Below, in pieces: positions 4,199 to 47,835 of a stretch of DNA of 64,000 nt. Every line of letters starts with the position of its first letter. Positions within the stretch are counted from its first letter, which is position 1. Source of the DNA: an uncultured Methanoregulaceae archaeon (lineage in GTDB: Archaea > Halobacteriota > Methanomicrobia > Methanomicrobiales > Methanospirillaceae); NCBI GenBank assembly GCA_963701095.1, contig OY969564.1, positions 2,048,001 to 2,112,000 of the forward strand. Reading direction: 5' to 3'. Made by a program: the position numbers and the translations under genes. The notes under the pieces are model-generated. The model was not told the origin of the DNA, searched no databases, and saw nothing but the letters and a program-made list of their open reading frames with translations.

Positions 4199-4214
4199 TT
4201 TAGTTGCTCCGCCT

Positions 4215-21253: not shown

Positions 21254-22459
21254 GTGTACATGCGTGTCGCTGACCCCGAAGGATACCGGTATGCCACCGA
21301 GGAGAAAGTCAATCGCAGGATTGATTCCTTTCCTCCTGATGAACGTGAACTGGTAAGAGAGTACATCAATACCAGTAGAGCCCAGAAGGGTATAAAATTA
21401 GTCAGGGTTGTTGGAATTATCGCTGGTCTGAAAGCCTGGCGGGATATCATCAAAAAACCGTTTCAGAAATGGACGCGCAATGATGTTTACCAAGGTGTTA
21501 CCTTCGTACGGGACAAAAAAAATTACAAACAAAATACGTCGATCATTTACATCGCCCTTATGAAAGCGTTCCTGACATGGATGATCACGGAGAAGTATTC
21601 GAAAATTCCCCTTGAAGAGATCATTAAAATCCAGTTGCCGAAAGGCGATACTGGATCCTTCAAACCTGGCGACATTCTTACCGAAGAAGAAGTCAGGACT
21701 ATTCTCTCATGTTGCGGATCTGATCGGGACAGGGCGTTGATTGCCTTGCTCTACGATGGAGGTTTCCGCATGGTTGAAGCGGCAATGATGACCTGGGGAG
21801 ATCTCGATTTTCAGTTCGATGACAGGATCACTGCGCGTACCTCACAGAAAACCTATGTCCCCCGTGTGGTTTCCCTTATGTCTTGTAAAGAGCTGATTGC
21901 AACATGGCGCTCACATTACCCGGGCAATCCGGTAGGCGATAACCCTGTTTTTGTAACCAGGGATGGCGAACCATTTACGTACTCGACAGCCACTGAGGTT
22001 ATAAAAAGTATACGGCTTAAAGCGATCAAGAAAGGTCTCGATCCAAAGAGAATTAAATTACACCAGTTCCGACGAGCATCAATTACCCATGAGGTCAATA
22101 AGGGACGCCCGATTTCTCATATCTGTATTGAACGCTGGGGCCGGGCATATTCTCCGATGATTGAGGTATATGCAAAACCCAGTGAGCAGGACGTTCTTCG
22201 CTCAAAGATGGAAATGTTCGGCGTAGAACCCAAACGGAAATATGAGAAGCGGAAAACAGCGATGACACCGACTCAATGCCAACATTGTGGTTTTATCAAT
22301 TCACCAGAAATTGAGTTCTGCGGAAAGTGCGGGAAACCGTTGTCTGAAGAAGCATTGACTGAAATTGAAATACTCCGAAAGGAGAGAGATATGGCTTTGG
22401 ATTTGGTGAACAAAGCGTATAAGGAAGGAAAGTTGGATTTAAAAGAACTTACGAGGTAG
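21254..22459 (+). CDS. tyrosine integrase with C-terminal zinc ribbon
   Basis: RDRALIALLYDGGFR, LHQFRR, RWG, EVYA catalytic set; CQHC...CGKC. Confidence 0.9.
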   Translation: MYMRVADPEGYRYATEEKVNRRIDSFPPDERELVREYINTSRAQKGIKLVRVVGIIAGLKAWRDIIKKPFQKWTRNDVYQGVTFVRDKKNYKQNTSIIYIALMKAFLTWMITEKYSKIPLEEIIKIQLPKGDTGSFKPGDILTEEEVRTILSCCGSDRDRALIALLYDGGFRMVEAAMMTWGDLDFQFDDRITARTSQKTYVPRVVSLMSCKELIATWRSHYPGNPVGDNPVFVTRDGEPFTYSTATEVIKSIRLKAIKKGLDPKRIKLHQFRRASITHEVNKGRPISHICIERWGRAYSPMIEVYAKPSEQDVLRSKMEMFGVEPKRKYEKRKTAMTPTQCQHCGFINSPEIEFCGKCGKPLSEEALTEIEILRKERDMALDLVNKAYKEGKLDLKELTR

Positions 22460-22649: not shown

Positions 22650-22814
22650 GTGAGGCGCATTAATACACCCATCAACGAGCACCGAAATGATACAAACAAA
22701 CATCACAATTCAGGGTTTGACGAGGAATTTCAACAGACTATCATTAGTGTTATTAAGAGCGAAGAGTTTTCAGCATTTTTAGAAAAGGAAATTATCGGAA
22801 TTGCTGAGAGATAA
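22650..22814 (+). CDS. small ORF resembling the C-terminal helix of the neighbouring repressor
   Basis: GTG...TAA, 54 aa, read by hand; GFDEEFQQTIISVIK. Confidence 0.35.
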   Translation: MRRINTPINEHRNDTNKHHNSGFDEEFQQTIISVIKSEEFSAFLEKEIIGIAER

Positions 22815-23055
22815 TTTCCCTCATTAAACGCTCCAGTTCTTTTTTTACTTCCGGGTTATCCTTCATAAATGAAAGGATCGTTCCCTGCATGTTACTCTCA
22901 AACTCTTTCCGGTTTTTGTAGTATTGCAGCGCAGTATTCACCAAGTCACTAACTGACTCGAAAGGTGCTTTGTTTCCGTCTTTTGAGGCCGTCTGATACT
23001 GAACCCATTCGTCAAGATCGTTATTTATCTTGAATGATACCTGTCGTTTCACCAT
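22792..23055 (-). CDS. ribbon-helix-helix regulator (putative repressor)
   Basis: KRQVSFKIN strand followed by FESVSDLVNTALQYY helix; divergent from the early operon. Confidence 0.7.
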   Translation of the reverse strand: MVKRQVSFKINNDLDEWVQYQTASKDGNKAPFESVSDLVNTALQYYKNRKEFESNMQGTILSFMKDNPEVKKELERLMREIISQQFR

Positions 23056-23343: not shown

Positions 23344-23492
23344 CCGAAGCAGTACCGAAATATATCAGCCGGGCTGCGATGGATGCATTTGAAAAAGAGG
23401 ACCCTGCCGGAGCACGGTTAATCGTAGCATTTGGTCTGGTCAAGATTATCGGAGAAAATGGTGACCGGCATGGAAGCAAAAACGGAATTTAA
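23340..23492 (+). CDS. small viral hypothetical protein
   Basis: ATGA overlap with the previous gene; MTEAVPKYISRAAMDAFEKEDP. Confidence 0.5.
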   Translation: MTEAVPKYISRAAMDAFEKEDPAGARLIVAFGLVKIIGENGDRHGSKNGI

Positions 23493-23790
23493 AGGCGCCC
23501 CGACCCCACAGCCTGCAAGCATCGCGGGAGAGGGAAGCGCCGGTATAGTATCTGAACAAAAGAAGAAATATGTACGCTCAACCTGCCTCCGGTGCTGGCA
23601 GAAAGTCATTATCGCGTGGAAAAAGGGCGATTACCTGAAGAACAAGAAATGCCCCCTCTGTGGAGGAAGGTTAATGGGTAAGGTGCCAGTCAATAAGAGA
23701 GATCCCTATCCTGGCGAACCAAGGGGGCGAGTGATGACCCCTACCCCTTTCCTTCGTGTCGAATCAGAAAACGGGGGAGTTTCGATTTGA
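23470..23790 (+). CDS. viral zinc-finger protein
   Basis: CLRC...CPLC. Confidence 0.6.
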   Translation: MEAKTEFKGAPTPQPASIAGEGSAGIVSEQKKKYVRSTCLRCWQKVIIAWKKGDYLKNKKCPLCGGRLMGKVPVNKRDPYPGEPRGRVMTPTPFLRVESENGGVSI

Positions 23791-23800
23791 TTTTTTCCAA

Positions 23801-23824
23801 TTATGTTATGTTATGTTATGTTAC
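23801..23824. repeat. (TTATG)x4 tandem repeat
   Basis: ttatgttatgttatgttatgttac. Confidence 0.9.
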
Positions 23825-23866
23825 TCGTACCGGTACGCTAAGAGAGAGAAAGAGAGTGGTGCTGAA

Positions 23867-24331
23867 ATGATTCGGACCACAGTCTATCTCGATCAGGATT
23901 ACGAGGATCTTAAACCCCTCCTCAAGCGCCGGGGAGTGACTAATTTTTCTGAGGTCTGCCGGGATCTCATTATGTTCCTGATAGGCGATGGGGAAACAGA
24001 ACTCACCAAGACGCAGATACGGGAGCTCACAAGCCAGTTTGCCAAAATGAAACTTGCCGAACTGCAAAAACAGCAGAAGATAACCGGAGCGACCGAAGAG
24101 GAAAAGCAGAAGATCGACGCATTCCGGGCAAAGCGGATGGCCAAGATCATCGAATCGGTAAAGGTAGAATCCTCTCGCATAGGCACCGACCGGTTCAAGC
24201 GATACCTGGATGATCCGTATGGTGACTATGCAATCATCCAGGACGACATTATTGCTGCGGTATCTCAGGCTTCCGGGTATCAGGTAAATCTTGCGGACCT
24301 CATCCAGGCATTCAAGGCAGTATCATCATGA
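23867..24331 (+). CDS. viral protein with RHH-like N-terminus
   Basis: MIRTTVYLD...NFSEVCRDLI. Confidence 0.6.
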   Translation: MIRTTVYLDQDYEDLKPLLKRRGVTNFSEVCRDLIMFLIGDGETELTKTQIRELTSQFAKMKLAELQKQQKITGATEEEKQKIDAFRAKRMAKIIESVKVESSRIGTDRFKRYLDDPYGDYAIIQDDIIAAVSQASGYQVNLADLIQAFKAVSS

Positions 24332-24795
24332 CCCGGTCGTGGCCTGTCTCTCCAGATGCGAAGGAGTCCCGCCGGGGCGCTCGTATCAAGAACGCGAAGA
24401 AAACCGTTATCGATGGGATACTGTTTGCGTCACGTATGGAATCCCGGCGATATGTCGAGCTTAAGAAACTGAAAGCGGCTGGTGTCGTGACTAAAATCGA
24501 GTGCCAGCCGGTATTTGAACTCCAACCGGCGTACCGGAAATGCTGCGACGTGACATATAACGCCGAAGATGCGCCGTTCCTTTATAAAAAAGGTATCTGC
24601 GAGTGTTGCGGGAAGAAGATGCCGATAATCAAAGCGATCCGGTATGTTGCCGATTTCCGTGTGACCTATGCAGATGGCAGGGTAGAGATTGAAGATGTAA
24701 AAGGCCATGAAACCGAAATTTTCAAGATCAAGAAAAAGATCCTGGAATGCAGGTATCCGGAGATCACGCTTAAAGTAGTAACGAAGGTGCGGTGA
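24328..24795 (+). CDS. DUF1064-family PD-(D/E)xK nuclease
   Basis: IDGILFAS..E..RY, YVADF, IEDVKG; Cys-rich insertion. Confidence 0.82.
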   Translation: MTRSWPVSPDAKESRRGARIKNAKKTVIDGILFASRMESRRYVELKKLKAAGVVTKIECQPVFELQPAYRKCCDVTYNAEDAPFLYKKGICECCGKKMPIIKAIRYVADFRVTYADGRVEIEDVKGHETEIFKIKKKILECRYPEITLKVVTKVR

Positions 24796-25321
24796 TGTCG
24801 CACCAGCGCAAAGGGGATTACAAAACCCAGAAGGATGAGTGGGAAACCCCGGACTGGCTCTTTGCATTACTTGATCGGGAGTTTAATTTCAGGGTGGATG
24901 CAGCCGCTCGTAAACACAACACAAAGACCGGACTATATTTTGAGGATGCGATTTCTGTGGACTGGGCACATCAAGGGGGAATTGACCCAGCTATTTCCTT
25001 AATCCTCCCTACAGTGTCGGGAATATCAACCGGTTCATGAAGAAAGCCTACAAGGAATCTTTGAAGGGTGCGGTAGTCGTTTGCCTCGTACCAGTCGCAT
25101 CAGATACCCGGTGGTGGCATGATTACGTCATGCATGCGCAGGAGATCCGGTTTATCCGGGGCCGGGTGAAGTTCATCGGCTATGATGAGCATGGAAAACA
25201 GATCCAGAACTCTCCGACATTCTCTTCGTGTGTGGTGATCTTCAAACAGGAACGGCGTCAGGACTGGGAAAACCCAAGAATCGGCGAAACCATCCTGCAA
25301 CCCCGGAAGGTGCCAGCGTGA
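24792..25321 (+). CDS. phage-type DNA N6-adenine methyltransferase (frameshift near 24980)
   Basis: DEWETP...VDAAA, then FLNPPYS and LVPVASDTRWW...FIRGRVKF in the next frame. Confidence 0.85.
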
Positions 25322-25658: not shown

Positions 25659-25904
25659 ATGGACGTTCAGGGGAGTGAGTGCATAGTGAGTGAGGAGACA
25701 GAATTCAATTGGGGACGTTCACGGAGCAAGAAAGCAAAATATGTCCATCTTTTTATCAATGGAAAAGCCAGCTGCGGACAAGGGCCAAGGATGGACTTGC
25801 AAAACGATGACTGGGACCCCAATAATCCCGAAACATGCCCACACTGCAAGGAATATTATGCCTGGCTAAAAAAGGGATTTCACCGCGTTCCAGAGTACAC
25901 TTAG
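25659..25904 (+). CDS. small viral hypothetical protein (H/C-rich)
   Basis: VHLF...SCG...CPHC. Confidence 0.5.
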   Translation: MDVQGSECIVSEETEFNWGRSRSKKAKYVHLFINGKASCGQGPRMDLQNDDWDPNNPETCPHCKEYYAWLKKGFHRVPEYT

Positions 25905-25914
25905 ATTAATTATT

Positions 25915-26724
25915 TCAAAAAAAATCAGATAGAGAAGAGTTTATATTTTTTATCTTTTTTGGCGGGTAATATACACCTATCAATAACCAATTATTCCACT
26001 TGCTTTCTGTCCCCATATAAAAATAAATATCTCGTTTTGTGAGCTCGTCAAAATATTTTTGTTTGACCTTCGCAAAGCAGTTATCCAATCCATATTTATC
26101 CCGCATCTTTCTCCACAGTTCACCCAGTTCCCAATCTTCACACATCATGTTATGATCTTTACATCGATCATCACAACATCTGAAATGATACCCCATCCAA
26201 TAAGGAATATATTCTAATGGTGACTTGTAATCTCCACAAAGTGTGGTTTGTCTTCCGGTGATTAATTCCTTCTCCCAATCCCTGCATGCACCACGATCTT
26301 TTTTATAAAAATCAAAAATTCGATTGGGTTTGATCAATCCTAAGGATGTTCCATCCTCTTCAGATCGCTCTATCAAGTCTTCAACTGATTTATTCAGGAG
26401 AGGAAGGATAATTTTATTTCGTGCATCCCAATCAATGGGGCTTTTAGAGAGGGACTCATCAACTATTTCTATGGTATCTGGTTTTATTTTGTGGCTTTCC
26501 TTTCTTTGGTATTTTTCATGTTCTTTTGATTTTTGTGCTTCTACTTCAATCCAAATGTATCTTTTAAATTGTTTATGAGGCGGGAGCTTGCGAAAAGGTA
26601 CTGGATACATCCTTATCCAGTTTCCTTCGTCGGTTATACCTGCCACACATACTGTTTCTTCATATTTTTCACTTAAATTTGGATACGCCTTAACAGTAAC
26701 AAAAACTTTAACTTTTTTCCACAT
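25915..26724 (-). CDS. conserved DUF488-associated protein (probable OB-fold)
   Basis: VKAYP..S.KY.ETVCVAG...WIRMYPVPFR, SLGLIKP, DWELG; AT-rich. Confidence 0.65.
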   Translation of the reverse strand: MWKKVKVFVTVKAYPNLSEKYEETVCVAGITDEGNWIRMYPVPFRKLPPHKQFKRYIWIEVEAQKSKEHEKYQRKESHKIKPDTIEIVDESLSKSPIDWDARNKIILPLLNKSVEDLIERSEEDGTSLGLIKPNRIFDFYKKDRGACRDWEKELITGRQTTLCGDYKSPLEYIPYWMGYHFRCCDDRCKDHNMMCEDWELGELWRKMRDKYGLDNCFAKVKQKYFDELTKRDIYFYMGTESKWNNWLLIGVYYPPKKIKNINSSLSDFF

Positions 26725-26783
26725 ACTTCCCTTTAAAGCGAATAATAATAAATTCTTCGAGTATTAGAGAATTTTTAACCGTC

Positions 26784-27827
26784 TTATAAATCAATTCTTT
26801 CTTTAAATTCACCGGTTGCTAATATCAAGTTTGCCAAAATATGCCTATGGCAATGTATTTTCTGATCTCTAGTTGGTTTGGCATGCTTTTCCATACACAT
26901 TAAAACGGTCTTGCCGTTACTTTTTATTTCATCCACAAATTTCTTGAAGTCCATTTCTTTCTCAGTATGCCATTTGTAATATTTTTCAAGACATTCTATA
27001 GGAATAGCTCCATCCTTGTATGGGTTTTGCCATTCATATGGAATCCCAAGATCGGGACGGTGCTCGTATTTTATTTTGGCTCTATCCAATTCCCTTGCTA
27101 GAATGGATTTATTAAAATCTGGTTTATATTGAGATTCTGCTGAGAATCGAACGTCTATCAGACGTACGATACCATTATTTTTGAGTATCTCAATGAACTG
27201 TTGAATTTCTTTCCCCTCATAGCCGATTGTATAAATTGTATTATTGAGGAAACGATCTCTTTCCCTTCTTGCATCCTCCTCATTAGTTATATTCTTTGAT
27301 TTTAATATTTTTAATAACACGGGCTGTGCTGATTTCTCAAGCGATGAAATAATTAGTGCTATTGAGTTGCTTATGCTGCCATCAGCCAACGCCTTAGCTA
27401 CGGTTTCATGTAAATCTAAAGCCAGTTGTACCCTGCTATTTACCCAAGTGTGGCTTTTACCAACTTTTTCTGCTATTGCAGCACCTGATAATTTAGTGGT
27501 CTCCATTATTGCTTTTAAAACTCGCCCCTGTTCAACCTGACTCATTTCTTGCCTAAGCAGGTTGGTTTTGATGCTGAGAAACATTGCATCAAGATCACTG
27601 AGGTCTTTCACAGTGGCTTCAATCTCCTTCCATCCGAGTTCTTTAGCTGCTTGGACTCGGTTGTGTCCACCAATTAATTCATACCCTTCTCCCTTGGGTC
27701 TTACGAGGATCGGATTCCACTGACCATCTTCTTTAAGACTTTCTCTTAATTCACTGATGTACTCAGGATCGAGTTTTTCACGAACAGTAAAAGTCGTATC
27801 ATCAATTTTGCTTATTTTTATCTTCAC
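26784..27827 (-). CDS. ParB/Srx-HTH-DUF488 fusion protein
   Basis: SLKEDGQWNPILVR...GGHNRVQA, HTH, then IYTIGYEG, LIDVR, LMCME...CHR. Confidence 0.88.
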   Translation of the reverse strand: MKIKISKIDDTTFTVREKLDPEYISELRESLKEDGQWNPILVRPKGEGYELIGGHNRVQAAKELGWKEIEATVKDLSDLDAMFLSIKTNLLRQEMSQVEQGRVLKAIMETTKLSGAAIAEKVGKSHTWVNSRVQLALDLHETVAKALADGSISNSIALIISSLEKSAQPVLLKILKSKNITNEEDARRERDRFLNNTIYTIGYEGKEIQQFIEILKNNGIVRLIDVRFSAESQYKPDFNKSILARELDRAKIKYEHRPDLGIPYEWQNPYKDGAIPIECLEKYYKWHTEKEMDFKKFVDEIKSNGKTVLMCMEKHAKPTRDQKIHCHRHILANLILATGEFKERIDL

Positions 27828-27871
27828 TGATCATCACCTAAAAATTGTTTTTGAGTTTTTTATGATTCATC

Positions 27872-28087
27872 TTATTTATTTACCTTCCAAGTAATATTAC
27901 CACTCGTTTTTTCTCTGATCAATCCTATGTCCCTCTCCATCCATTTAACCCAAGTATTGTTTGGCACTTTTTGAGGGAAATTTGCTCTCGTTTTTATCTC
28001 ACTCCAAGTGAGTCCCCGAGGATTTGTTATTAACAGATCTTTTATCTTTTCTTTAAACGTTTCATACGTCATTTTCTCTTCTTTCAT
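27872..28087 (-). CDS. small winged-helix-like protein
   Basis: KIKDLL...GLTWSEIK pattern; first gene of the cassette. Confidence 0.55.
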   Translation of the reverse strand: MKEEKMTYETFKEKIKDLLITNPRGLTWSEIKTRANFPQKVPNNTWVKWMERDIGLIREKTSGNITWKVNK

Positions 28088-28369
28088 TCTCAGCTGCCCC
28101 TTATATTTTTACTTTTAGATACTTCCCCCAAATATAAATGAGTTTTCTTTAGTTCTTTTTACACTCTTTTCGATAATCTTCTACGACGTTAATTTTATGG
28201 GAATATTTCAGTAAGGATTTTTGCATTTAGGGATAAATCGTGGCTTCTCCTGGGCTAGTGCTATCCATTCACACCCACCCTCCCGTACCCTCATTGACCG
28301 TCCTGAACCTCACCTATCGTTTATCTCAGTCCCGCAGCCATTTTCCTTTGTATTTCCCGCAAGTATGCG

Positions 28370-29532: not shown

Positions 29533-29608
29533 GCCACTGAAGCACCTGCTGGCTCGGTGCGTTCAGCCTGTAACTGAAAGGGCGCAGGTTCGATTCCTGC
29601 CAGTGGCT
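29533..29608 (+). tRNA. tRNA-Thr(UGU), atypical
   Basis: acceptor GCCACTG/CAGTGGC+T, D stem GCAC/GTGC, anticodon arm TTCAG-CCTGTAA-CTGAA, T arm GCAGG-TTCGATT-CCTGC. Confidence 0.8.
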
Positions 29609-29612
29609 TTCC

Positions 29613-29765
29613 ATGCGAACACGATTCTGTAGAGAGTGTGGGGAAACGTTCGAGGCGGTTGACGATAACGACTGGCTCTGCAAGAAATGTCTGCTCGCGG
29701 GATTCCGCGTATTATCCCAGGATACCAGAAAAATCGCCAGGAAAGAAGAGGTTCCGAACCAATGA
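29613..29765 (+). CDS. small zinc-finger protein
   Basis: MRTRFCRECG...LCKKC; ATGA overlap with the next gene. Confidence 0.55.
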   Translation: MRTRFCRECGETFEAVDDNDWLCKKCLLAGFRVLSQDTRKIARKEEVPNQ

Positions 29766-30373
29766 AAAACCCGTTAAAAGAAGAACCTGTGCCTGCCGGT
29801 GTGGGTAAAATCCTGCTGACGCATCTCATCCCGGATCCAAAGAACCCGCGTAAAGATCTTAAAAAAGGCGATCCGGAATTTGAGAAGATCACCACGTCCC
29901 TTGAAAAGTTCGGACAACTCGATCCGATCATCTTCAATACCCGTACCCGGAAGGTGCTCGGCGGTCATCAGCGGTTGAAAGTCCTCGCATCAAACGGATA
30001 TACGGAACTTAACACGTTTACGGTAGGGGCATACACCTGGGCATTTGCAGAGACCGATCTTGCAGAACTCTCACCATCGGAAGAAAACGCTGCTAATATC
30101 GCCCTGAATAAAGCGCAAGGCGACTGGAACGTGGACCAGCTCCTGATCAATCTCCAGGATCTTAAAGCCGAGGGAATGCTCGAGGTCTCCGGGTTTGATG
30201 AAAAGGAGTTCGAGAAATTAAAAAAGAAACTGGGAGAACCCGAAGATTCCAGCGACACCTCCCTGAAATCCGCGTTTGAAGTCATTATCGAGTGTGCTAA
30301 CGAAAGCGAACAGGAACAGGCGTATAACGAGCTCGTAGAGGCCGGGTACAAATGCCGCGTTTTGACATTGTAA
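29762..30373 (+). CDS. ParB-like N-terminal domain protein
   Basis: PDPKNPRK...SLEKFGQLDPII...GGHQRLKVL...NIALNK. Confidence 0.85.
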   Translation: MKNPLKEEPVPAGVGKILLTHLIPDPKNPRKDLKKGDPEFEKITTSLEKFGQLDPIIFNTRTRKVLGGHQRLKVLASNGYTELNTFTVGAYTWAFAETDLAELSPSEENAANIALNKAQGDWNVDQLLINLQDLKAEGMLEVSGFDEKEFEKLKKKLGEPEDSSDTSLKSAFEVIIECANESEQEQAYNELVEAGYKCRVLTL

Positions 30374-31437
30374 AGAAAACGGAAGCTGCCGGAACGTTCA
30401 AGGTTGAACAGGTAAAGGGCGCCTTCGATCTCCAGACATCTACCATCCAGGAGCATTTTGCCGGCGACATTGCCATTGAAGGTAAAGACTGGAACATCGG
30501 CCTGATTGTAGGCCGGAGCGGAACAGGGAAAACCACAATCGCAAAAGAATGCTTCACTGATGCCTACATAGCGCCAAACGATTATAGCCTGGCTGCAATC
30601 GTGGATCAGATGCCGAATGGACTTTCCTATGCTGAAATCACGCACATGTTCACGGCTGTAGGTTTTTCATCACCTCCTTCATGGCTGAAACCATACGCGG
30701 TACTGAGCAATGGGGAACAGATGCGGGTCGACCTCGCCAGGGCCCTTTTGGAAGAGCGCGAGTTGATAGTGTTCGATGAGTTTACGAGCGTGGTAGACCG
30801 GGACGTTGCGAAAGTCTGCTCTCTGGCGGTCAGTAAAGCCGTCCGAAAGATGGGTAAAAAGTTTGTCGCCGTTTCCTGTCACGATGATATCATTGCATGG
30901 TTGCAACCTGATTGGCTCTACGATACCAATCAGCAGACGTTTTCCTTTCGGGACGGCCACGAAAAACGCCCTGAAATCACGGTTGACGTATTCGACACCC
31001 ACAGAAACGCAAAGCTATGGAAGGTTTTTGCGAAGTATCACTATCTGAATACCGAGATTAAAAGGGGCACGGACACGTTTGTAGGCTGTATCAATAATGA
31101 ACCTGTAGCCTTCTGCGCTGTCAGGCATTTTCCTCACCCGATGAATCCCAGGATAAAGATGGTTCACCGGCTGGTTGTCCTGCCGGATTACCAGGGAATA
31201 GGTATAGGCACCCGGTTCCTGGGATTTGTTGCTGACCTGTATAAGAAAAAGGGATTTGCCGTTCGCCTGGTTACTTCCCAGGTGTCGCTTATCAATTCCC
31301 TGGAAAAACACGGCTGGCGGTTGAAATCGTTCGGCCACCAGGCTAAAGTAAAGAAGGCTGGACTAAAACATCTGAAAAAAACGAACAGTAACCGCAGGAT
31401 TACCGCATCGTTCAAATATACTGGGGGGATTAATTGA
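30352..31437 (+). CDS. ABC-ATPase-GNAT acetyltransferase fusion
   Basis: GRSGTGKTT, LSNGEQMR, VFDEFTS, then HRLVVLPDYQGIGIG acetyl-CoA motif. Confidence 0.88.
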   Translation: MPRFDIVKKTEAAGTFKVEQVKGAFDLQTSTIQEHFAGDIAIEGKDWNIGLIVGRSGTGKTTIAKECFTDAYIAPNDYSLAAIVDQMPNGLSYAEITHMFTAVGFSSPPSWLKPYAVLSNGEQMRVDLARALLEERELIVFDEFTSVVDRDVAKVCSLAVSKAVRKMGKKFVAVSCHDDIIAWLQPDWLYDTNQQTFSFRDGHEKRPEITVDVFDTHRNAKLWKVFAKYHYLNTEIKRGTDTFVGCINNEPVAFCAVRHFPHPMNPRIKMVHRLVVLPDYQGIGIGTRFLGFVADLYKKKGFAVRLVTSQVSLINSLEKHGWRLKSFGHQAKVKKAGLKHLKKTNSNRRITASFKYTGGIN

Positions 31438-32570: not shown

Positions 32571-34099
32571 ATGGCAGCCCGTACGATGTCCGATTCTGAT
32601 TATCAAAAATGCGTGACAGCTCAAACGAAGGGTATCCTTGTCAGTTCGTGCCGATGTTTTATCTTCCACATTTTTAATTATGTGATCGAACCACATCACG
32701 AGAACATCCTCGCCCACGTTGAGAGCTACCCGTTGACCCTTGACCTTGCTCCGAGAGGGTCAGGGAAAAGCCGGATTGTAACGATAGGCTATGCGGCGTG
32801 GCGGGCAATCGTGGACCCGGACATCCGTATCCTCATCCTCAGCGACACAGATGATCACGCAGTCCGGTTCCTCAATACCATAAAGACCGCCCTGCATCAG
32901 CATCCTCTTATTAAACAGCATTTCGGCCCGGTCGAGGGCGATAAGTGGACGGATCACCAGATCGTTCTTGCCGGCAGAAAGAAGATCCTTACCGAAGCCA
33001 CGATTACCGCCTTGGGTGCATATTCCGGGGCGGTCACGTCAGGACACTATGACCTTATCATCTGCGATGACCTGGTGAACTTCGAGAACAGCCGGACAGA
33101 AGGTGGCCGGGCCCGGATGCTCGAATGGTTCAAACAGACCCTTCTGCCGACACTGATACCGGGGGAGAGCTGCACGTTGTCGGCACCCGGTACCATTTTC
33201 TCGATCTTTACCAGATCATGATTGACGAGCTCAAATACGATACCAAAATCCAGCGGGCAATCATCCAGACCGAAGACGGCGAACATTCGATCTGGGAAGA
33301 GTATATGCCGCTTCTTGACCGGTGCGATGCGGTGACCGGTAAAAAAACCGAGGGGCTCAAAACCATCCAGGAAAACCTGGGCCCGGTTGTGTTCAATCTC
33401 CAGTACCAGAACGATGCCGAACTCATGAAGAAAGGCAGTATCTTTGAATATGACTGGTTCCGCTGGTACGAGATGGAAACACGGGAAGATGGCAGCCTGT
33501 GGATTCTCCGGTCGGACATGGCGCCGGTCGCGGTCAGCAAACTTACGATCTATGCGGGAGTAGACCCAAGCATCGGAGAAGGTGACCAGAGTGATTTCTT
33601 CTCGGTCTGCGTGATAGGCGTCGACCGTTTCACGAAAGAGATCTTTGTGCTCGATATTTTCAAAGGCCGGCTTTCGTACGATAACCGGGCCCGGATCGTG
33701 GATGCGAAGTACCAGCAATGGCATCCGTCTATTATCGGCATAGAAGATGTGGCCTTCCAGAAGGAATTCGTCCAGAGGGTACGGCAGACATTCCCCTATA
33801 TCAGGGTCAAGGAGATAAAAACAACGAAAGATAAGGTCAGCCGGGCGTATGGCCGGAGTGGCCTCGTCCAGAATGGTAAAGTTTTCGTTAAGAAAGGGAT
33901 GGCTGATTTTGTTGAAGAATTGTGCATTATGCCGGACGGCGCCCACGATGACCAGTTCGACGCATTTGATTTTGCCGTCGCGGTATCCGAGTCTGCGCAG
34001 GGTGGTGCAAAGAGTACACCGCTCCCGGGTTCAGGGAAATGGACGGGCGGCATGAAAACCGGTGAATGTGAACCGATCTGGAAGCAATTGTACAGGTGA
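32571..34099 (+). CDS. terminase large subunit (frameshift in G-run near 33165)
   Basis: APRGSGKS, LIICDD, VVGTRYH, AGVDPS, HDDQFDA. Confidence 0.92.
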
Positions 34100-34102
34100 A
34101 CG

Positions 34103-35764
34103 ATGGGTATTCTGAATAAAGTGAAAAAAGCGACTGCGGCTGGTCTCGGCACATTCTCTCGTGTCATGAAGGCACCCAGCTACAGTGAAGAGATAGAAGC
34201 GGATCTTGCGTACCGGCGCCGTGTTGCACTGCGTAAAAGTAGCCGGTACTCTGATTCGCTCAACAAATACGAGGTCACATCCGTAGACCAGGCACGGGCA
34301 TTGAATATACGTGCCAACCAGCTCATGCATGACCCTATGCGACGGGCGATCTATTCGGTCAATTCCTACATGAACATCTTCGGGATTCCCCGCCCGACCT
34401 TCTGGAAAGCCGATAATGACCGCCTTGCCCGGAACGCCATCTATGCCGTATGCGAGAAACGGATTATGGATACGGTTGAGACGGTCGAATGGGATGTCAC
34501 CGATGCCAATAAGGAAAGCGTCCAATCAGCCGTCCAATTCCTTAAAAAACCCAACCCGCAGCAGACATTCCAGATCCTTCTTAAACAGACTATCCCGGAT
34601 CTCCTGCGCTACGATCAGGCGTGTTGGGTCAAGACCCGGTCGATTGCCGGTAAGATTCTCGAACTGAAAGCATACAGTGGTCCGGAATTCTGGATCGAGG
34701 TCGATAACCATTTCAATGAAATCATGGGGCAATACGGCCTTTCCTATTTTGGTCCCTGGTCACACGGGTATGTGAAACGGTACTGGCAGCATTCAAAACC
34801 CGGTATCTACATTCCTTTCGCGCCAAAAGATGTCTGTTTCCTGATGATGTATCCCCGTGCGGATTCTATTTACGGGACGGATTTCATCCAGCAGATCCGG
34901 TGGCAGCTCGAATACCTCATCGATAGCACCAAAGCCGCCGGGATGACCTTTGCGAACGGTGTTGGGCCCTCAATGGTATGGAAACATCCTGACCTTAACA
35001 GCATCGAACAGCTGGAAGAGCGTGGGATGGAAGTCGAGCTCGAAAACAAAGGCCCGGAGAATTTCGGCAATATCCTTCACCTTATCGGGCAGGAAGATAT
35101 CAGCACCATTTTCCCTGAGCTCATGAACATGCAATGGCTCGAAGGCCAGAAGTTGATCTCGTCGATTGTCTGGGCGATGTTCGGGTTTTCTGCGTCTGAA
35201 TTCACCGGGGACGATGTTAATCGTGCGACCGCTTATATCAACCAGAATATCACTAAAAGCAAGATGCTGGCTCCGCTTCTCCGGCATCTCGAAACAGTCA
35301 TCAACGATGAAGTCCTGCCCGAACTCGATGGCTATCAGGAAGGCTGGACGTTTGCGTTCAAACCGGTTATCGAACTCGACGATAAGATCAAGGAAATGCA
35401 ATATCTCCAGACGCAGGCCCAGGTCGTAAAATCATACGTGGATATGAATGTCCCATTGGAAGAGGCTATGCGGCTCGCGGAAGTCGAGGAAGAGCATATC
35501 ACTTCGGTTACAACCGCCATGAATACTGTGAATCAGAAGGATTCGATGGAAGCAGCATACCACCGATTGCTTCAGGCCAACAACCTGCCGCCCAATCCGG
35601 GAATAGCATCCGCACCAGATGAAACATACCAGAAGCCTCTTGCTGATCCCGGCGTAGCGCCACCATCGGGCCCACACCGGGAGGGATATCAGGGAATTGC
35701 CGAGACTGACAGTGGCAGACCGGAGGATGACGGGCAGACCAATAAGAAGCCTATCGGACGTTGA
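34103..35764 (+). CDS. portal protein (HK97-like)
   Basis: follows terL; KKPNPQQT, IYGTD, FANG.GP, LAPLLRHLE..IN. Confidence 0.85.
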   Translation: MGILNKVKKATAAGLGTFSRVMKAPSYSEEIEADLAYRRRVALRKSSRYSDSLNKYEVTSVDQARALNIRANQLMHDPMRRAIYSVNSYMNIFGIPRPTFWKADNDRLARNAIYAVCEKRIMDTVETVEWDVTDANKESVQSAVQFLKKPNPQQTFQILLKQTIPDLLRYDQACWVKTRSIAGKILELKAYSGPEFWIEVDNHFNEIMGQYGLSYFGPWSHGYVKRYWQHSKPGIYIPFAPKDVCFLMMYPRADSIYGTDFIQQIRWQLEYLIDSTKAAGMTFANGVGPSMVWKHPDLNSIEQLEERGMEVELENKGPENFGNILHLIGQEDISTIFPELMNMQWLEGQKLISSIVWAMFGFSASEFTGDDVNRATAYINQNITKSKMLAPLLRHLETVINDEVLPELDGYQEGWTFAFKPVIELDDKIKEMQYLQTQAQVVKSYVDMNVPLEEAMRLAEVEEEHITSVTTAMNTVNQKDSMEAAYHRLLQANNLPPNPGIASAPDETYQKPLADPGVAPPSGPHREGYQGIAETDSGRPEDDGQTNKKPIGR

Positions 35765-35902: not shown

Positions 35903-38464
35903 ATGGTAGAGAATAAACCTGAAACTATAATAGAGACTTTTGAATCAAAGGTGAAAAAACTTGACGACACAATTACGGAAGATGTGACCGCATTAAAAGC
36001 AAATAAAAATCAGACTATAACCAAAATAACAAATATTAATGAAAAAATCAACTCCGAACACGTCCAATTTAAACAAGTCCTAATCAAAAACGGCGAAAAT
36101 TTTAAAATAGATCTTGGAAAAAGATATAATCTTTATCTTAAAAAGACCGCCTCTGTTAAAGAAAAACTCACAACGGTATCGACGCGACTCTTTAATTCTC
36201 AATACTTCGCAATTTGTGTTCTGTTACTAAGTATTATATTTTTTTTGACACATTTACCTTCGATTTCTGATGTATTTCAAAATTCAGTTATTAATGGGAT
36301 TATTCCGGTTTTACTTGTTTTCACTATTATCAGTTTTGTAATTTTCACTCGCGAAACGTTTAAAAAAATCAATGAAGTAAATCCTGAACCTATTGAGGAT
36401 TTAACTACGGATTTAAATGGCGTTGAATTTGAAGATGTGAGCGTTTATGATTTTAAGGAAGATATCATTGAACAAAAACGGAGCACAGATCAACTAATTT
36501 CTTCAGCACAATCGGCGTTAGATATCATCCTATATAAAATTCCTATGTACAAAGATTATGTTGAAGATGAACATTTTAGGAGAAAATGGGAACTTGGGTG
36601 TGATGAGTACCAGAATGCTTTGAAGTTTTTTGGCTTAAATTATAAGGTTCAATTTCAAAAACTTAAGGATAAGCCGAATATTGACTCAAAAAGAGTTGAT
36701 GATTCGATATTAGATTCACACATTCTTAGTGATGTTTCAATGACTCTGAACATATCGTCTGCAATTGTTCAGATCTTAGTTCAATATTATCGAGGGAACA
36801 ACGCTCAAATTCTCTGGGAGGAAATTAAAAAGGATACATACAAATTTCAGTTGTTATCTCATACGTTATACAACTCAAATCAGATAGATATCGATAGATT
36901 GAGATTATCTGAAACAGATTTTCAAAATATTATCTTAAAAACAAAAGAGTTCAGTATTAGCCAGATCTCTAAAAATTCATCATTATTTGTTCAAATAAAG
37001 TTAAAACTCGAAAATTATGAAAAAATATTAATTGAAAATGAGATACCGCTAGAAAAGACGACTGATTTTGATGAATTAATCAATTCAATTAATTTCAACC
37101 AGACCTTTGAAAAGAATTTTTTAAATGTACTCTCTCATAAAATCATTCCGATTCTCCCGGTCGAACAAACTCAAGCATACGAAAAAGCGATTATTGCAAT
37201 TTTGCTTAACGATGAAATACTATTCAAAGATATAGTATGTAAAGATGCTAAAGATGATGATACTGTTCTTGTTTTAATGACATATCACGAGATGTTGCGA
37301 GAAAGAAAAGAAAATAAGCAAGTATTCAAATTGAATGATTTATTAGTCAATTTGCATATATTGGAATCAACTAAAGAAAGAATTCAAACCGAAGTTGAAC
37401 TAAAGAATCGTTTTGTTTATTTCAAGAATGATTTGTCTCGTGGTTTTTGGTGGGATGACGGATTATCATTACAACGGAAAATGTTTGATGATCTAAAACA
37501 GGATTTCAGTCAAAAAATCGATAAATTAGATAGGTCTATAATTATTACAAAATTATTTGAAAAAACCTTTACAGAAATTAATATCAATACAGTTGATAAG
37601 GCCATTGATGCGAATTTATTTTCGACTTATCTAATACTCACAAGCGCCAGTAAAGGGCACCTACTTCCTTTTTTGGATCCAATTAGTATAAGAAATCCTG
37701 ATAAGACAAAAAAAGATTTTTCAGAATTAAAGACATACGAGAAAAAATATGGAATAACCTTAATAAAGGACGGTAAGCCGAAATATGATTTCACGAATTA
37801 TTCAACTAGGACAAGAATAGGTGTTCTCCCGCGAAATACAAATTTTTTAGCCTTCGTTCAAGAAATGAAAGATGATGTCAACAAAATTTTGCAAGCCGAA
37901 TCCCAATTTGCTGAAGAAGAAATGGAAGATATTGGATTGGCTATTATTCGCGTAACGCCATCAAAATATAGTTTCGGTTTACTTGATGATGAGATTGAGA
38001 AAAGCAGTAATGTAAGAACAAAAGATTTACATATTGCAAAAATTATCGCAATTTTAGCTAAAGATTATACTTCGAATTCGGAGCAATATCTTATGTCCGC
38101 ATTCGACGGAAAGATAAACCTAACAGAAATTTTTAATCAATTGTCAATCTTTGAATTGATTCCAGCAAAAGAAATGGATCTCTCTCCAGAATATGAAGGA
38201 TTTTTAAAAAGTGATAGCCTAAAAAAGGCTATTTTAGCTTCCCTAAAGAAAGAGGGGATATCCAGTATTAAGGTATTATCAAAAACCGTTAGAAGCAATA
38301 AAGAAAATCATATATTTTTGAAATCTATAATTAGCGAAGCAATTGTTGATGAATATTTTAAAAGAAAAGGTGTAACGATTCAAACGTCCCGATTGAATTT
38401 TTTAATGAGCGAATTAATGAAATCACTTGATTCCATTGCCGAGTTGATGGAAAATTTATCCTGA
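35903..38464 (+). CDS. large AT-rich hypothetical protein with coiled coil and two TM helices
   Basis: 853 aa; hydrophobic segments near residues 100-150; AT-rich. Confidence 0.75.
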   Translation: MVENKPETIIETFESKVKKLDDTITEDVTALKANKNQTITKITNINEKINSEHVQFKQVLIKNGENFKIDLGKRYNLYLKKTASVKEKLTTVSTRLFNSQYFAICVLLLSIIFFLTHLPSISDVFQNSVINGIIPVLLVFTIISFVIFTRETFKKINEVNPEPIEDLTTDLNGVEFEDVSVYDFKEDIIEQKRSTDQLISSAQSALDIILYKIPMYKDYVEDEHFRRKWELGCDEYQNALKFFGLNYKVQFQKLKDKPNIDSKRVDDSILDSHILSDVSMTLNISSAIVQILVQYYRGNNAQILWEEIKKDTYKFQLLSHTLYNSNQIDIDRLRLSETDFQNIILKTKEFSISQISKNSSLFVQIKLKLENYEKILIENEIPLEKTTDFDELINSINFNQTFEKNFLNVLSHKIIPILPVEQTQAYEKAIIAILLNDEILFKDIVCKDAKDDDTVLVLMTYHEMLRERKENKQVFKLNDLLVNLHILESTKERIQTEVELKNRFVYFKNDLSRGFWWDDGLSLQRKMFDDLKQDFSQKIDKLDRSIIITKLFEKTFTEININTVDKAIDANLFSTYLILTSASKGHLLPFLDPISIRNPDKTKKDFSELKTYEKKYGITLIKDGKPKYDFTNYSTRTRIGVLPRNTNFLAFVQEMKDDVNKILQAESQFAEEEMEDIGLAIIRVTPSKYSFGLLDDEIEKSSNVRTKDLHIAKIIAILAKDYTSNSEQYLMSAFDGKINLTEIFNQLSIFELIPAKEMDLSPEYEGFLKSDSLKKAILASLKKEGISSIKVLSKTVRSNKENHIFLKSIISEAIVDEYFKRKGVTIQTSRLNFLMSELMKSLDSIAELMENLS

Positions 38465-38643
38465 TAGAATCTCCATATTTTGGGAAGTTTGAGGTTTTAA
38501 TATCAATATTTGGCTACAACCCTGTCGGAATTCAATGAAAAGTGATATCGTCGTAAGACGTCAATGATAACAAATTGAAAGTCCAAAAAGGCAATAGAAC
38601 CTTATTGATTTCCATCCATCTATCAACGTAACAAAAACATAAA

Positions 38644-41600
38644 ATGGAAAAGATAGATTTAACGGCAAACAAACTTCAAAATAACAATAGTCCACAGGGA
38701 GATATATCTTCAATGTCTAATGACCTGACCTTTATCACCAACGAAAATAACAGGACGTTATATGACCGGTTTAATACACTTATCAATAACACTTCTCTTT
38801 TTGATTGTCTTGTTGGGTATTTTTTCACAAGTGGTTTCAATAAAATATATCGTTCATTAGAGAATACAGAGAAGATTCGTATTCTCATTGGCATCAGCAC
38901 GAACCCACAGACGTATAAATTGATTCAAAATGCACAGCAACAGCAAAGACTGGTTTCCGATTATGAAGTAAAGGAAACCTATAGTCAATCTATTGTGCAG
39001 GAATTTGACGAGTCTCCAGATAATTCCGATGTTGAGACTGGCGCGAAAAAATTTGTTGACTGGATCCTTTCAAAAAAACTCGAAGTTCGTGCATATCCCA
39101 CGGAAAAAATTCACGCTAAAGTCTATATCATGACCTTTAAACAGGGTTCGGTTGATGTTGGCCGGGTTATCACAGGTTCAAGTAATTTCACAGAAGCAGG
39201 TTTACAGCACAATCTTGAATTTAATGTGGAACTGAAGGATCGCAGAGACTATGAATACGCCCTTGAAATGTTCAATAAATTGTGGGCCGAATCAGTGGAT
39301 GTCTCGGAGAAATATGTTGAGACGATCAAAACAAAAACTTGGCTGAATGATGAGATTAAACCCTATGAACTCTACCTGAAACTATTGTATGAATATTTCA
39401 AGGACCGTCTTCTCCTCGATAGTTACGAATTGGAACAGGGCATTATTCCTGACAACTTCATGGATCTCAAATATCAGCGAGATGCGGTTCAGGATGCCAA
39501 ACAGATCCTCGAATCATATGGCGGAGTTTTTATTTCTGATGTTGTCGGTCTTGGTAAAACCTACACGACAACGCTTCTTGCCCGAGAACTAGACGGCAGG
39601 TCTCTAGTAGTAGCCCCTCCCGGATTACTTGACCGGAATAACCCGGGTTCCTGGCCAAATGCATTTGGAGAATTCGGTGTCAGGCAGGGAGAATTTGAAT
39701 CAATCGGGAAGCTCGACTCAATAATTGAGAACGGGGTTGATCGTTTCAAGAATGTAATTATTGATGAATCACATGCATTCAGAAATGAAGAAACCCAGAG
39801 ATATGAAAAACTCGCCCAGATATGTAAGGGGAAACGGGTTATTCTCGTATCTGCCACACCGCTGAATAATACCCCCCAGGACATTGTTGCCCAAATCAAG
39901 CTCTTTCAGGATGGACACAAATCCACCCTACCTAATCCGATTGTGAAGGACCTTGATGCGTATTTTGGAAAGCTCCAAAGACGGCTTGACAACGTAAACC
40001 GGAAGGAAAATCCGAAAGAATACATCAAGATAATGCAAGAAAATTCTGCAGAAATCCGAAAAAATGTTCTTGATTATCTGATGGTGAGAAGGACTAGAAC
40101 CGTTATTGAAAAATATTACAAGAGCGATCTTCGGGTTCAGGGTCTGAAATTCCCCAAGGTCGACGATCCCAAACCCGTGTACTACAATTTTGAAAAAGAT
40201 GTTGAACTTGCATTTAATGAATCGTTGAAATTGATTACTAAATCTCTCAAGTACAGTCGATATACTCCCCTTTTATATCTTAAAAAGATTGACCAGCGCG
40301 AACGAATGGGTCAGATAAATATGGGAAGGTTCATGAAGGTCCTTCTTTTGAAAAGACTGGAGAGCAGTCAATATGCATTCAAGATGTCAATCGGCCGATT
40401 TATCCATTCATATGAACGGGTAATCGAAGAATATGAAAAAGGCTTTGTCTATGTCAGCCGAGATTATGCCCAGAAAATTTTTGATCTTCTTGAGAGCGGG
40501 AGTTATGAGATAATCGAGAAGATGATCGATGAAGATCGTGCTACAAAATATGCCATTGACCAGTTTGATGAATCGCTGATAAGTGATTTAAAAAGCGATC
40601 TCGATGTCCTGAAAAAAATTAGGGGATTGTGGGAAACGATCACTATTGATCCTAAACTTGAAGAGTTCAAGAGACTTCTTGCCAAAGATAAAATCCTGAA
40701 GGAAAACAAACTCCTGGTATTCACCGAAGCAATGGAAACGGCAGAGTACCTTGAGAAGAAACTCAAATCCGAAGCATTTTCTGGAGCTGGAGTACGGTAT
40801 TTCTCCGGTACTGAAGGAACGACCAACAGAAATGAAATCATCCGGAATTTTGATGCGACGTCGCGGAATCAAAGAGATGATTTCCGAATCCTGATAACAA
40901 CCGATGTTCTTTCCGAAGGAATGAACCTGAACCGGTCGAATGTAGTGATTAATTATGATATCCCCTGGAATCCGGTCCGGATGATGCAGCGGGTCGGTCG
41001 TATTAACCGCGTGGCTAAGCGATTGCCCTATGACACAATTCATACGTACAACTTTTTCCCGACTGGTAATATTGAAGAAGAGATCGGCCTGGAATCTGCA
41101 GCAGAAGCAAAAATAGAAGCATTTATCGAAATGCTGGGAGACGATGCCCCACTCCTTCTAGATGAGGAGGTAAAATCCCATGAATCACTATTCAAGAAAT
41201 TGAATTCCCGGGAAATCATTGTTGGTGAAGAAGAGGATGACCTGGAGCTTGCGTATCTTCAGGAAATCCGAAAAGTCAGGGATGAAGAAAAGGAATTATT
41301 TGATAAGATCAAGAAACTTCCAAAGAAGGCCCGTTCCTGCAAAAAATCTGATATTGATGGAGTTATCACATTTTTAAGACGCGGGGATATGAGTAAATTT
41401 TATCTTAACGATAAAAACTCAGTTAAAGAAGTTGATTTTGTTATCGCTGCAGGGCAGGCGAAAACCCAGAAAAATACAAAACGTTGTCCGCTTTCCGAAT
41501 CGTTCTACACATTACTCGAAGCAAACAAAAAAGCGTTTGATATTGTTTTTCATTTCGATGAACTGGGACTGGGGCATGCTGCAGCCAGTACTGCAGAGGG

Positions 41601-44800: not shown

Positions 44801-45365
44801 TCCAGCAATAAAAGATTATTTGAAATCGTTTGGTAAAAAAATCGAACAAACCGGTGAAGAATTTTTGGATAATGAGGGAAAAAAGAGAAAAAGTCGAAAA
44901 AAAACATCTCACAAATGGTTTGAGGTTCAAGACAGTACATCCTATTGGAAAGAGTTTCAGAAAGAGAAATTATTCTGGATTGATTTGGTCGATAACGGTC
45001 GTTTTTCATACGATTCAGATGAGATGTTCGCTGAAAATACTGCATATATAATGACTGGAGAATCGATAAAATATCTTGTCGCGATACTAAATTCAAAATT
45101 GATAAATTACTACTTCAGCTTAATTTGTGCCACATCGGGTATGGGAACAAATAGATGGATAAAAATTTATGTCATGGAATTACCTATTCCCAAAATCACC
45201 GATATGGCACAACAACCGTTCGTAAAATTGGTTGATATCATTTTACGGAAGAAAGGGGGTGGCGAAAACACTAAAATGGATGAGGATGAACTCGACAGGC
45301 TTGTCTATAAATTATATGGTTTGAATAATGATGAAATTGCAATTGTAGAGGAATATAACAATTAA
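41882..45365 (+). CDS. Eco57I/type IIG-like adenine methyltransferase with TRD (frameshift near 43830)
   Basis: PFLNGGLF, FYTPRE, DPAVGSGAF, GNPPY, TaqI-C-like end. Confidence 0.88.
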
Positions 45366-45421
45366 TTCAAATTTTTTGCGGTATCGTTCATCATCTCCCT
45401 GAATCCATTATCTCTTCAGAA

Positions 45422-45460
45422 TGCCCCTATATAATCACCCAATCCTGAATACCTGATATC
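45422..45460 (+). promoter_or_regulatory. putative viral late promoter, copy 1
   Basis: TGCCCCTATATAAT, 25 nt before the ATG at 45461. Confidence 0.5.
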
Positions 45461-45841: not shown

Positions 45842-45926
45842 TAACTCCCACGACCAAAGCCATGAGTTTTTGCTGATTTAATTATAAAAGAAACTGATAA
45901 ATTCTCATTTTCAAAAGGTATTTGTT

Positions 45927-47830: not shown

Positions 47831-47835
47831 TGCAA

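Follow-up and report, generated by a model that had tools for sequence, protein, structure and literature searches.

The locus examined here raises the question of what an integrated archaeal virus does with a compact cassette of three genes that lies, on the opposite strand, between its early and late genes. The cassette is part of a 64,000-nt window (the whole stretch of DNA that was analyzed) of contig OY969564.1, from assembly GCA_963701095.1 of an uncultured Methanoregulaceae archaeon. It consists of a small upstream gene (C), a gene that fuses a ParB_N domain and a ParB-type helix-turn-helix (HTH) to a DUF488 domain (A), and a partner gene with a predicted tandem-OB fold (B); the coordinates are collected in Table 1. 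Judging by profile matches and gene linkage, the core of the cassette is a widespread pair of a DUF488 gene and a double-OB gene, of the kind listed as PDC-M19 by PADLOC, here with ParB fused to the DUF488 domain and with C split off. We read the cassette as accessory cargo of the provirus (a 'moron'), and we hold it to be somewhat more probable than not that it serves lysogen defense or superinfection exclusion against other viruses or mobile DNA.

The assignment to PDC-M19 is supported by B and, for its DUF488 part only, by A. Protein B matches PDC-M19B (PDLC04508) with an E-value of 1.5e-66, its residues 4-258 aligning to positions 3-264 of the 269-position profile. The DUF488 part of protein A matches PDC-M19A (PDLC04505, E 2.6e-25) with residues 184-342, which cover positions 137-288 only of the 294 in that profile; A also matches PDC-M45B and PDC-M45C, more weakly. 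From the name we take the 'M' to mean multi-gene. A first-pass annotation of the sequence had not recognized the architecture as a named system and had put it forward as a candidate new antiviral one, unless it should match a system already named. Due to the PDC-M19 match this novelty falls, though PDC-M19 is itself only a candidate, and the fusion in gene A is already in print as a CTP (cytidine triphosphate) binder, as described below.

The same annotation had proposed a survey of the neighborhoods of ParB-DUF488 fusions, and in this survey the genes proved to be co-conserved and tightly linked. A search of species-representative genomes with B gave 275 relatives, and 80 loci went into the comparison (loci of the survey carry L numbers). 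These are mostly archaeal, from Micrarchaeota, Thermoplasmata, Methanothrix, Methanoregula and Asgard lineages, with a few bacteria. A DUF488 gene adjoins B in 75 of the 80 loci, directly upstream in 71 and downstream in four, which bears out the statement of the first-pass annotation that proteins with the ETVCVAG/WIRxYP signature (the B family) commonly neighbor DUF488 genes. Where no DUF488 gene was seen, B lies at the contig end (L058, L065, L079), has just 915 nt upstream of it (L016), or follows a different fusion (L041). In this last locus, which adjoins a type IIG restriction-modification (R-M) gene, C is followed by a ParB_N-HTH-ASCH gene and then by B, and the substitution of ASCH for DUF488 points to exchangeable C-terminal modules. 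ParB is present on three of the 75 DUF488 partners of B (L044, L057, L074), and the remaining 72 carry other N-terminal regions of about 60-140 residues.

With the ParB-HTH-DUF488 fusion as the query, metagenomes yielded 184 relatives, and again 80 loci went into the comparison. B is present in 59 of them (51 downstream on the same strand, five upstream and three on the opposite strand), and in 14 the flank is too short to judge. Neighbors of B-less fusions at L104 and L117 were considered as divergent B proteins and rejected (hhalign probability <1). Among the viral contigs of IMG/VR, five carry B, all with a DUF488 gene directly upstream; a scan with the fusion alignment gave 87 pattern matches, none of which was confirmed. 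As a separate observation, three tandem B paralogues adjoin one ParB-HTH-DUF488 gene both in a locus labelled Promethearchaeia (L074:1788-5821) and on a metagenome contig (L099:1798-5840).

Gene B had been described as OB-like, and comparison of its predicted fold agrees: on the AlphaFold2 (AF2) model (pLDDT 88), B is a tandem-OB protein. Foldseek related the model to RPA70, archaeal RPA, Teb1-AB, CST, the Oxytricha telomere end-binding protein (TEBP) and HIN-200, with probabilities of 0.94-1.0 in the best rows, yet with low TM-scores of 0.22-0.35. B matches phrog_25907 (E 3.3e-51) and has no Pfam match of its own, with none to DuOB (PF22557) at E<=0.1. The DuOB cut-off of 27 bits is passed by three of five scanned B homologues with 50-57% identity (P0002, 32.7 bits; P0007, 31.8 bits; P0009, 36.1 bits), the other two lying below it. 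By their titles, papers that name DuOB hold nothing on this domain, and a sequence search of the PDB with B returned a chance-level match alone (E 0.056). The family is large, with 512 matches in the homologue search and, among 1.84 billion, 2830 representatives at E<=1e-3 and 1801 at E<=1e-10. C26, C183, H191 and the D197-W198-E199 triplet are invariant, with more conserved cysteines close by, and the conserved Cys and His residues suggest a metal site. The B of the window is nearest to the B proteins of lineages in which C is fused to DUF488 (50-57% identity), and many B proteins beside other ParB fusions match the same profile far more weakly (E 1e-10 to 1e-20). Due to this uneven relatedness, the cassette looks as if it was assembled from exchangeable modules. 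A complex prediction for the DUF488 domain and B gave ipSAE values of 0.01 and 0.00 and, having been run without controls, weighs neither way on binding.

The DUF488 domain is the presumed enzyme of the cassette. It scores 67.4 bits against a PF04343 cut-off of 22.2, and the Pfam matches, the translation and the alignments all confirm the ParB/Srx-HTH-DUF488 fusion of the first-pass annotation together with its motifs: GGHNR, IYTIGYEG, DVR, MCxE and CHR are all legible. Across 43 DUF488 domains, this one included, G-Y, D-x-R, S, Y, G, Y, C-x-E and C-H-R are invariant. The AF2 model of the domain (pLDDT 92.5) is a three-layer alpha/beta structure in which the first Cys stands at the end of a strand and the CHR motif at the start of the following helix. 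In a wide structural search, many Cys phosphatases of the protein tyrosine phosphatase (PTP) fold were returned with Z values of 7.4-6, including RNA 5'-phosphatases, but the spacing from Cys to Arg is C-x9-R or longer in DUF488 as against C-x5-R in the P-loop of PTPs. Such fold matches are not decisive; Z values of this size are common between unrelated alpha/beta folds. A Cys-dependent enzyme, possibly phosphatase-like, is a lead from the model and not a finding. A PDB sequence search with the DUF488 part of A gave no match at E<=1, and the search listing of the literature that mentions DUF488 points to no assigned function.

The N-terminal half of gene A is ParB-like over its whole length. 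The protein is recognized as TIGR00180 (ParB/RepB/Spo0J domain) with 117 bits against a cut-off of 58.45 in NCBIfam, and its residues 1-190 align with solved chains of Spo0J, ParB and Noc (E 4e-24 to 2e-12), spanning both domains. Homologues number 224, and all three Pfam domains are present in 117 of the 120 listed. The canonical nucleotide boxes of ParB are GERRxR and ENLQR, with a further QPR. Aligned to Spo0J (1vz0), protein A has G54-H55-N56-R57-V-Q at the GERRxR position, T-N89-L-L-R92 at the ENLQR position and T-V-R16 at the QPR position, so that of GERRxR and ENLQR it keeps just the G, one R, the N and an R. R16, G54, H55, R57 and N89 are invariant across 31 aligned fusions, and because of this invariance the predicted nucleotide pocket is best described as a conserved variant, not a decayed one. 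A 'DUF488-HTH' fusion from archaea is among five ParB-fold proteins that bound CTP in a DRaCALA assay, according to passages of Kaljevic et al. 2025 (10.1101/2025.10.10.680097, PMC12704722). By likeness to this fusion, protein A is a putative CTP binder.

In seven Micrarchaeota-type loci, the DUF488 proteins are 265-267 residues long, and their residues ~52-121 are homologous to the product of the small gene C (E 1e-29 to 5e-34). There the C part is fused, with a MazE/AbrB-like domain on its N-terminal side and DUF488 after it. In L010, L041 and L039, C is a separate small open reading frame (ORF). A MazE/AbrB domain precedes the C part in five of 22 homologues. This pattern of fusion and fission with DUF488 ties C to the system, of which it appears to be a true, optional part. 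The label of a winged helix-turn-helix that had been attached to this protein was not confirmed: no Pfam family matched, a C profile found nothing in the PDB at E<=10, and a language-model atlas gave weak leads only (0.86-0.87), to the winged-helix-type clusters HTH_5, FUR and DUF2582. The N-terminal region of M19A of the Methanothrix type, tried as a relative of C, was rejected (hhalign probability 0.1).

The arrangement of the locus is that of inserted cargo. The first-pass description of an AT-rich, tightly linked, opposite-strand cassette inside viral genes is borne out by the ORFs, the composition and the Pfam context: three intact ORFs on the minus strand, in the order C-A-B, run against the surrounding viral genes, with intergenic gaps of 44 nt (C-A) and 59 nt (A-B). 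B and the gene at 25659-25904 converge, with 10 nt from one stop to the other. The GC content is 0.29-0.45 in the block from about 25.9 to 28.25 kb, compared with 0.49-0.59 in both flanks.

The distribution of the cassette is patchy. Within the phylum, the ParB-HTH-DUF488 fusion was found in three of 401 genomes, this one among them, and in none of 11 others of the genus; this genome has one copy each of DUF488 and B. The DNA of a metagenome contig (L085) shares 90.3% identity with window positions 25899-28055. The likeness breaks off 16 nt beyond B's stop codon, and the remaining 194 nt are unrelated. This closely similar copy in a different flank indicates that the cassette moves as a unit.

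Two sister elements are present in the same genome (L179, 96000-110000; L180, 790000-802000). Their backbone genes share 47-86% amino-acid identity with those of the provirus and include homologues of 22792-23055, 23431-23790, 23756-24331, 24328-24795, 25659-25904, 29687-30373 and 30352-31437. Between the early block and the homologues of 29687/30352, both carry cargo with a GC content of 0.30-0.32, and the cassette is absent from both. More specifically, one sister has a single DUF4238 gene of 403 residues in this place; the other has a GmrSD_N/DUF262 protein (NsnA profile, E 8.6e-72; PD-T4-2_A, E 4.6e-55) together with a RiboL-PSP HEPN gene and a GGDEF/Cas10-palm gene. Since different low-GC cargo occupies the sisters, the cassette sits in a variable cargo slot, at least one alternative occupant of which is, by its profile matches, of a recognized defense type. 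The slot looks like a cargo hotspot of an archaeal virus family. Among 60 genomes of the family, no related provirus DNA was found outside this genome.

The same provirus has a second AT-rich island (35903-46454, GC 0.30-0.44), placed between its portal and capsid genes. It holds a protein of 853 residues that belongs to no family and a PLD/HKD protein with an Snf2 helicase (PADLOC C3a139, E 2e-46). A type IIG R-M gene in the island is divided between two ORFs and possibly broken, with the front of PDLC03596 at 41882-43846 and its end at 43932-45365.

The neighbors of the pair in other genomes were surveyed within two genes on 37 loci (148 proteins, PADLOC at E<=1e-5; HTH-only and weak Cas4 matches were not counted). 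The R-M or defense-type neighbors are parts of type I, II and IIG R-M systems, PtuB, SduA, Vsr and PDC-S09, and in L048 and L060 the pair lies inside type I R-M operons. In seven Micrarchaeota-type loci (L001, L002, L003, L012, L040, L064, L066) the DUF488-B pair adjoins an opposite-strand gene of ~400 residues (about 3850-5110, minus), which matches a DDE transposase in the three scanned copies (L001, L064, L012), with a SWIM zinc finger in L001 and L064. A type II methylase stands one gene further out in L001, L002 and L003, and a large methylase on the other side in L012.

The pair is also carried by cultured viruses. Five temperate Gordonia phages (seven records) encode a DUF488 protein of 150 residues (gp42) and a B homologue (gp43) that is 30.5% identical to B over 97% of B. 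The integrase (gp39) stands on one side of the two genes and the immunity repressor (gp44) on the other, with gp43 abutting the repressor gene. In actinobacteriophages, the region beside integrase and repressor is the typical place of lysogen-expressed defense genes. For gp42 of Gordonia phage Nymphadora (L170, 33833-35130), a tentative depositor label of 'HipA toxin' did not hold up: Pfam shows DUF488 only.

Taken together, these observations argue for defense or superinfection exclusion as the role of the cassette. This reading draws on the PDC-M19 match, the linkage of DUF488 and B, the R-M and defense-type neighbors and the cargo hotspot, as well as on the second AT-rich island with its HKD-Snf2 helicase and type IIG R-M gene in the same provirus. 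It also draws on the position of the Gordonia pair beside a repressor, the patchy and mobile distribution, the ParB-superfamily sensors in GmrSD and SspE, and the CTP-binding fusion. The first-pass annotation had offered a provirus-borne module for defense or for DNA-damage sensing; of these, the provirus cargo stands and defense is the best-supported function, while damage or abasic-site sensing found no support.

Several results weigh against a defensive role and have to be set beside it. Carriage by viruses would in principle fit counter-defense or genome maintenance equally well. The canonical C-terminal dimerization domain of ParB is missing in A, where DUF488 takes its place, and the box residues that are changed are those tied to CTP hydrolysis in ParB; given these altered boxes, clamp cycling may differ or be absent. 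Linkage is imperfect, with B missing from seven of 80 fusion-centered loci despite at least 900 nt on both sides, and C found in just 10 of 80 B-centered and 13 of 80 fusion-centered loci, upstream of the ParB-DUF488 gene in the latter. R-M or defense-type neighbors were seen in 15 of the 37 surveyed loci, a count that is suggestive only because it comes without a matched control, and 22 of the 37 have none within two genes. For the presumed enzyme, Foldseek gave no match at E<=1e-3, and the top of the wide structural search was taken by N-domains of tetrapyrrole methylases (Z 8.3-6.8), a middling likeness in fold. A literature search for the name 'PDC-M19' found no paper. Finally, passages of Payne et al. 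2024 (10.1101/2024.01.29.577857) describe PDCs as chosen for their place inside BREX, DISARM or type I R-M loci, and the 145 PDCs, PDC-M19 among them, as untested candidates.

Other explanations were weighed against the same evidence. The cassette could help the element to maintain itself or to handle its genome. Its ParB-HTH part would then bind a viral site for partition, silencing or replication control in the manner of KorB or Noc, and B would act as the element's single-stranded DNA-binding protein. Such a role would suit the full ParB_N-plus-HTH score of A and its close PDB matches, the resemblance of B to RPA-type binders of single-stranded DNA, and the primase-like gene near which L117 and L119 lie; DUF488 genes also occur in a replication-related neighborhood of Methanoperedens plasmids, as passages of PMC9674854 indicate. 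However, no ParA/CbiA-type partner was matched among the 59 window ORFs scanned, no convincing parS-like palindrome or repeat was found, the element is integrated and has an integrase, and both sister elements manage without the cassette. With 72 of the 75 DUF488 partners of B lacking ParB, and with a block that is compositionally foreign and on the opposite strand, we consider maintenance an unlikely function. A toxin-antitoxin or addiction module, in which C would be a DNA-binding antitoxin or autorepressor and A or B, or both, toxic when released, would stabilize the cargo and might or might not abort infection. The genes are indeed small, tightly linked and mobile, the MazE/AbrB domain ahead of C in some homologues is of an antitoxin type, and one Gordonia record tentatively uses the word toxin for a gene in which Pfam sees DUF488 only. 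Yet C is missing from most loci, profile scans of the cassette matched no known toxin family, and the fusion of C-like or AbrB-like domains to DUF488 in many lineages would be unusual for an antitoxin-toxin pair, which leaves this explanation with a slim chance.

The ASCH domain belongs to the PUA-like superfamily, which is associated with the recognition of modified bases, and the ASCH swap would fit a counter-defense function in which the proteins shield viral DNA or remove a mark or nucleotide signal of host immunity. A phosphatase-like fold, if the model is right, could destroy a signaling nucleotide, and carriage by this provirus, by the five IMG/VR contigs and by Gordonia phages agrees with such a role. 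On the other hand, most copies lie in archaeal cellular chromosomes, some of them inside host R-M operons, copies in IMG/VR are very few (none for the ParB fusion, five for B), and a place beside integrase and repressor is typical of lysogen-expressed genes; we regard counter-defense as improbable to much the same degree as addiction. The proposal that DUF488 is a catalytic-Cys enzyme that crosslinks or processes abasic sites, within a module that senses DNA damage, has the invariant Cys and the ssDNA-binder-like partner on its side. The search listing of papers mentioning DUF488 offers no support for it, such chemistry belongs to SRAP (SOS-response-associated peptidase, PF02586), which has a different fold, and the idea looks like a mix-up with that family. 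Neither the window scan nor the neighbor survey found linked SOS or repair genes, and the patchy, mobile distribution is not that of a housekeeping function, and this is the most doubtful of the explanations considered.

If the cassette is a defense module, a working order of events can be sketched. The ParB_N-HTH part of A would bind CTP and DNA and act as a DNA-loading or sensing module, by analogy to GmrSD and SspE, while B would bind single strands or DNA ends laid bare when a genome invades or replicates. The Cys/Glu/Cys-His-Arg cluster of DUF488 would then act chemically on a nucleic acid or nucleotide, in a position that ASCH could also fill. C, which elsewhere is fused to MazE/AbrB and DUF488, may be a DNA-binding regulator or adaptor.

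A bolder generalization, which goes beyond the defense reading and which we consider rather improbable, is that cassettes of ParB-X plus double-OB, with X being DUF488 or ASCH, form a distinct class of immune systems of archaea and their viruses in which DNA scanning is gated by nucleoside triphosphates (NTPs). In such systems, a CTP-switched ParB would load onto DNA, an RPA-like partner would report single strands or ends of the invader, and a swappable C-terminal module with novel chemistry (in DUF488, a Cys/His/Arg active site) would disable it; temperate archaeal and actinobacterial viruses would use the system for superinfection exclusion.

Part of the significance of the locus lies in the DUF488 family, which is large and whose constant pairing with a double-OB protein is one entry of the catalogues of defense candidates. 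Here the pair rides in a swappable slot of sister proviruses where recognizable defense cargo also occurs, and the temperate Gordonia phages that carry it, being cultured, make a first functional test feasible in the laboratory. Proof of activity would give DUF488 a role and extend ParB-type nucleotide switches to archaeal immunity.

The remainder of the window gives the setting of the provirus. The first 21 kb hold chromosomal genes of a methanogen-like archaeon (RadA, NOG1, DUF1890, pyruvate:ferredoxin oxidoreductase and nitrogenase-like genes in Pfam), and the integrated head-tail virus follows next to them, as seen in the Pfam scan of the window ORFs. Early viral genes with DUF1064 and a Dam-like methylase lie upstream of the cassette. 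This N6-adenine methylase (PF05869) is spread over two ORFs (24792-25040 and 25037-25321) that overlap and differ in frame, and is either a frameshifted or a two-part gene. A search for att repeats gave nothing convincing. A tRNA-Thr(TGT) gene lies inside the element at 29533-29608, between the cassette and the late genes, and no tRNA was found in the examined stretches of the two sister elements. Just ahead of the capsid gene, and again just ahead of the gene at 55768, stands a 56-nt direct repeat (46589-46644 and 55708-55763) whose copies are 71% identical and have the core CCCTATATTATGAATT in common; it may be a repeated viral promoter element. Further downstream, at 61054-61530, a short or truncated SRAP gene forms an ORF of 158 residues that matches only the first 131 of 214 profile positions.

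Table 1. Features of the cassette and of the surrounding provirus, in window coordinates.
Feature	Position	Strand	Place	Basis
Gene C, 71 aa, probably DNA-binding or regulatory module	27872..28087	minus		ORF
Gene A, 347 aa, ParB_N - HTH_ParB - DUF488	26784..27827	minus		ORF, Pfam
ParB_N (ParB/Srx NTP-binding fold), residues 2-90 of A, GGHNR box	27558..27824	minus		PF02195, E 4e-17
ParB-type helix-turn-helix, residues 94-180 of A	27288..27548	minus		PF17762, E 1.6e-7
DUF488, residues 208-334 of A, presumed enzyme	26826..27206	minus		PF04343, E 2.3e-18
Gene B, 269 aa, predicted tandem-OB (DuOB-like), Cys/His cluster	25915..26724	minus		ORF, PADLOC, AF2 fold
Low-GC cargo block, whole cassette	25900..28250			GC composition
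AT-rich region, presumed promoter	28088..28250	minus	5' of cassette	GC 0.32-0.37
Integrase	21254-22459			Pfam scan
Terminase nuclease domain	33125-34099		downstream of cassette	Pfam
Portal gene	34103-35764		downstream of cassette	Pfam
SU10-type capsid gene	46648-49149		downstream of cassette	Pfam

Comparison with known systems separates what is already established from what the window adds. The architecture is widespread, the pair is catalogued as a candidate and the fusion is in print. PDC-M19 is the closest named relative: B matches over its full length, and the DUF488 gene comes first, adjacent and on the same strand. In contrast to PDC-M19, the N-terminal region of M19A is replaced in A by ParB_N and HTH, and a separate 71-aa gene stands in front. 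The archaeal fusion of Kaljevic et al. has the same three-domain architecture as A and is widespread in archaea; the passages of that paper on it (PMC12704722) discuss neither a partner gene nor a function. The cassette of L041 shares the C gene, the ParB-HTH scaffold and B with the window and differs in having ASCH for DUF488.

More distant relatives share single elements of the design. Canonical CTP-dependent clamps such as ParB, Noc and KorB have the ParB_N and HTH domains of A, whereas A has no ParA, no C-terminal dimerization domain, and altered GERRxR and ENLQR boxes. RPA70, Teb1, CST, HIN-200 and DuOB have two OB folds, as the model of B does; B differs from RPA70, Teb1, CST and HIN-200 in its low TM-scores and in its own invariant Cys/His and EDWE motifs. 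According to passages of PMC12065111, the NTPases of the ParB superfamily include the DUF262 proteins, which sense modified phage DNA in GmrSD and SspE and also occur in PD-T4-2, Dazbog and Menshen. Like A, the proteins GmrSD, SspE, NsnA and PD-T4-2_A have a ParB-fold NTP-binding domain, then a DNA-binding domain, coupled to an effector, and one of the sister elements has a member of the GmrSD/NsnA class in the corresponding slot. A differs from the GmrSD/SspE class in its canonical ParB_N and HTH_ParB instead of DUF262, its DUF488 effector instead of an HNH or other nuclease, and its OB partner. To these comparisons the window adds the provirus cargo-slot context, a small gene tied to the system, and the parallel with the Gordonia phages.

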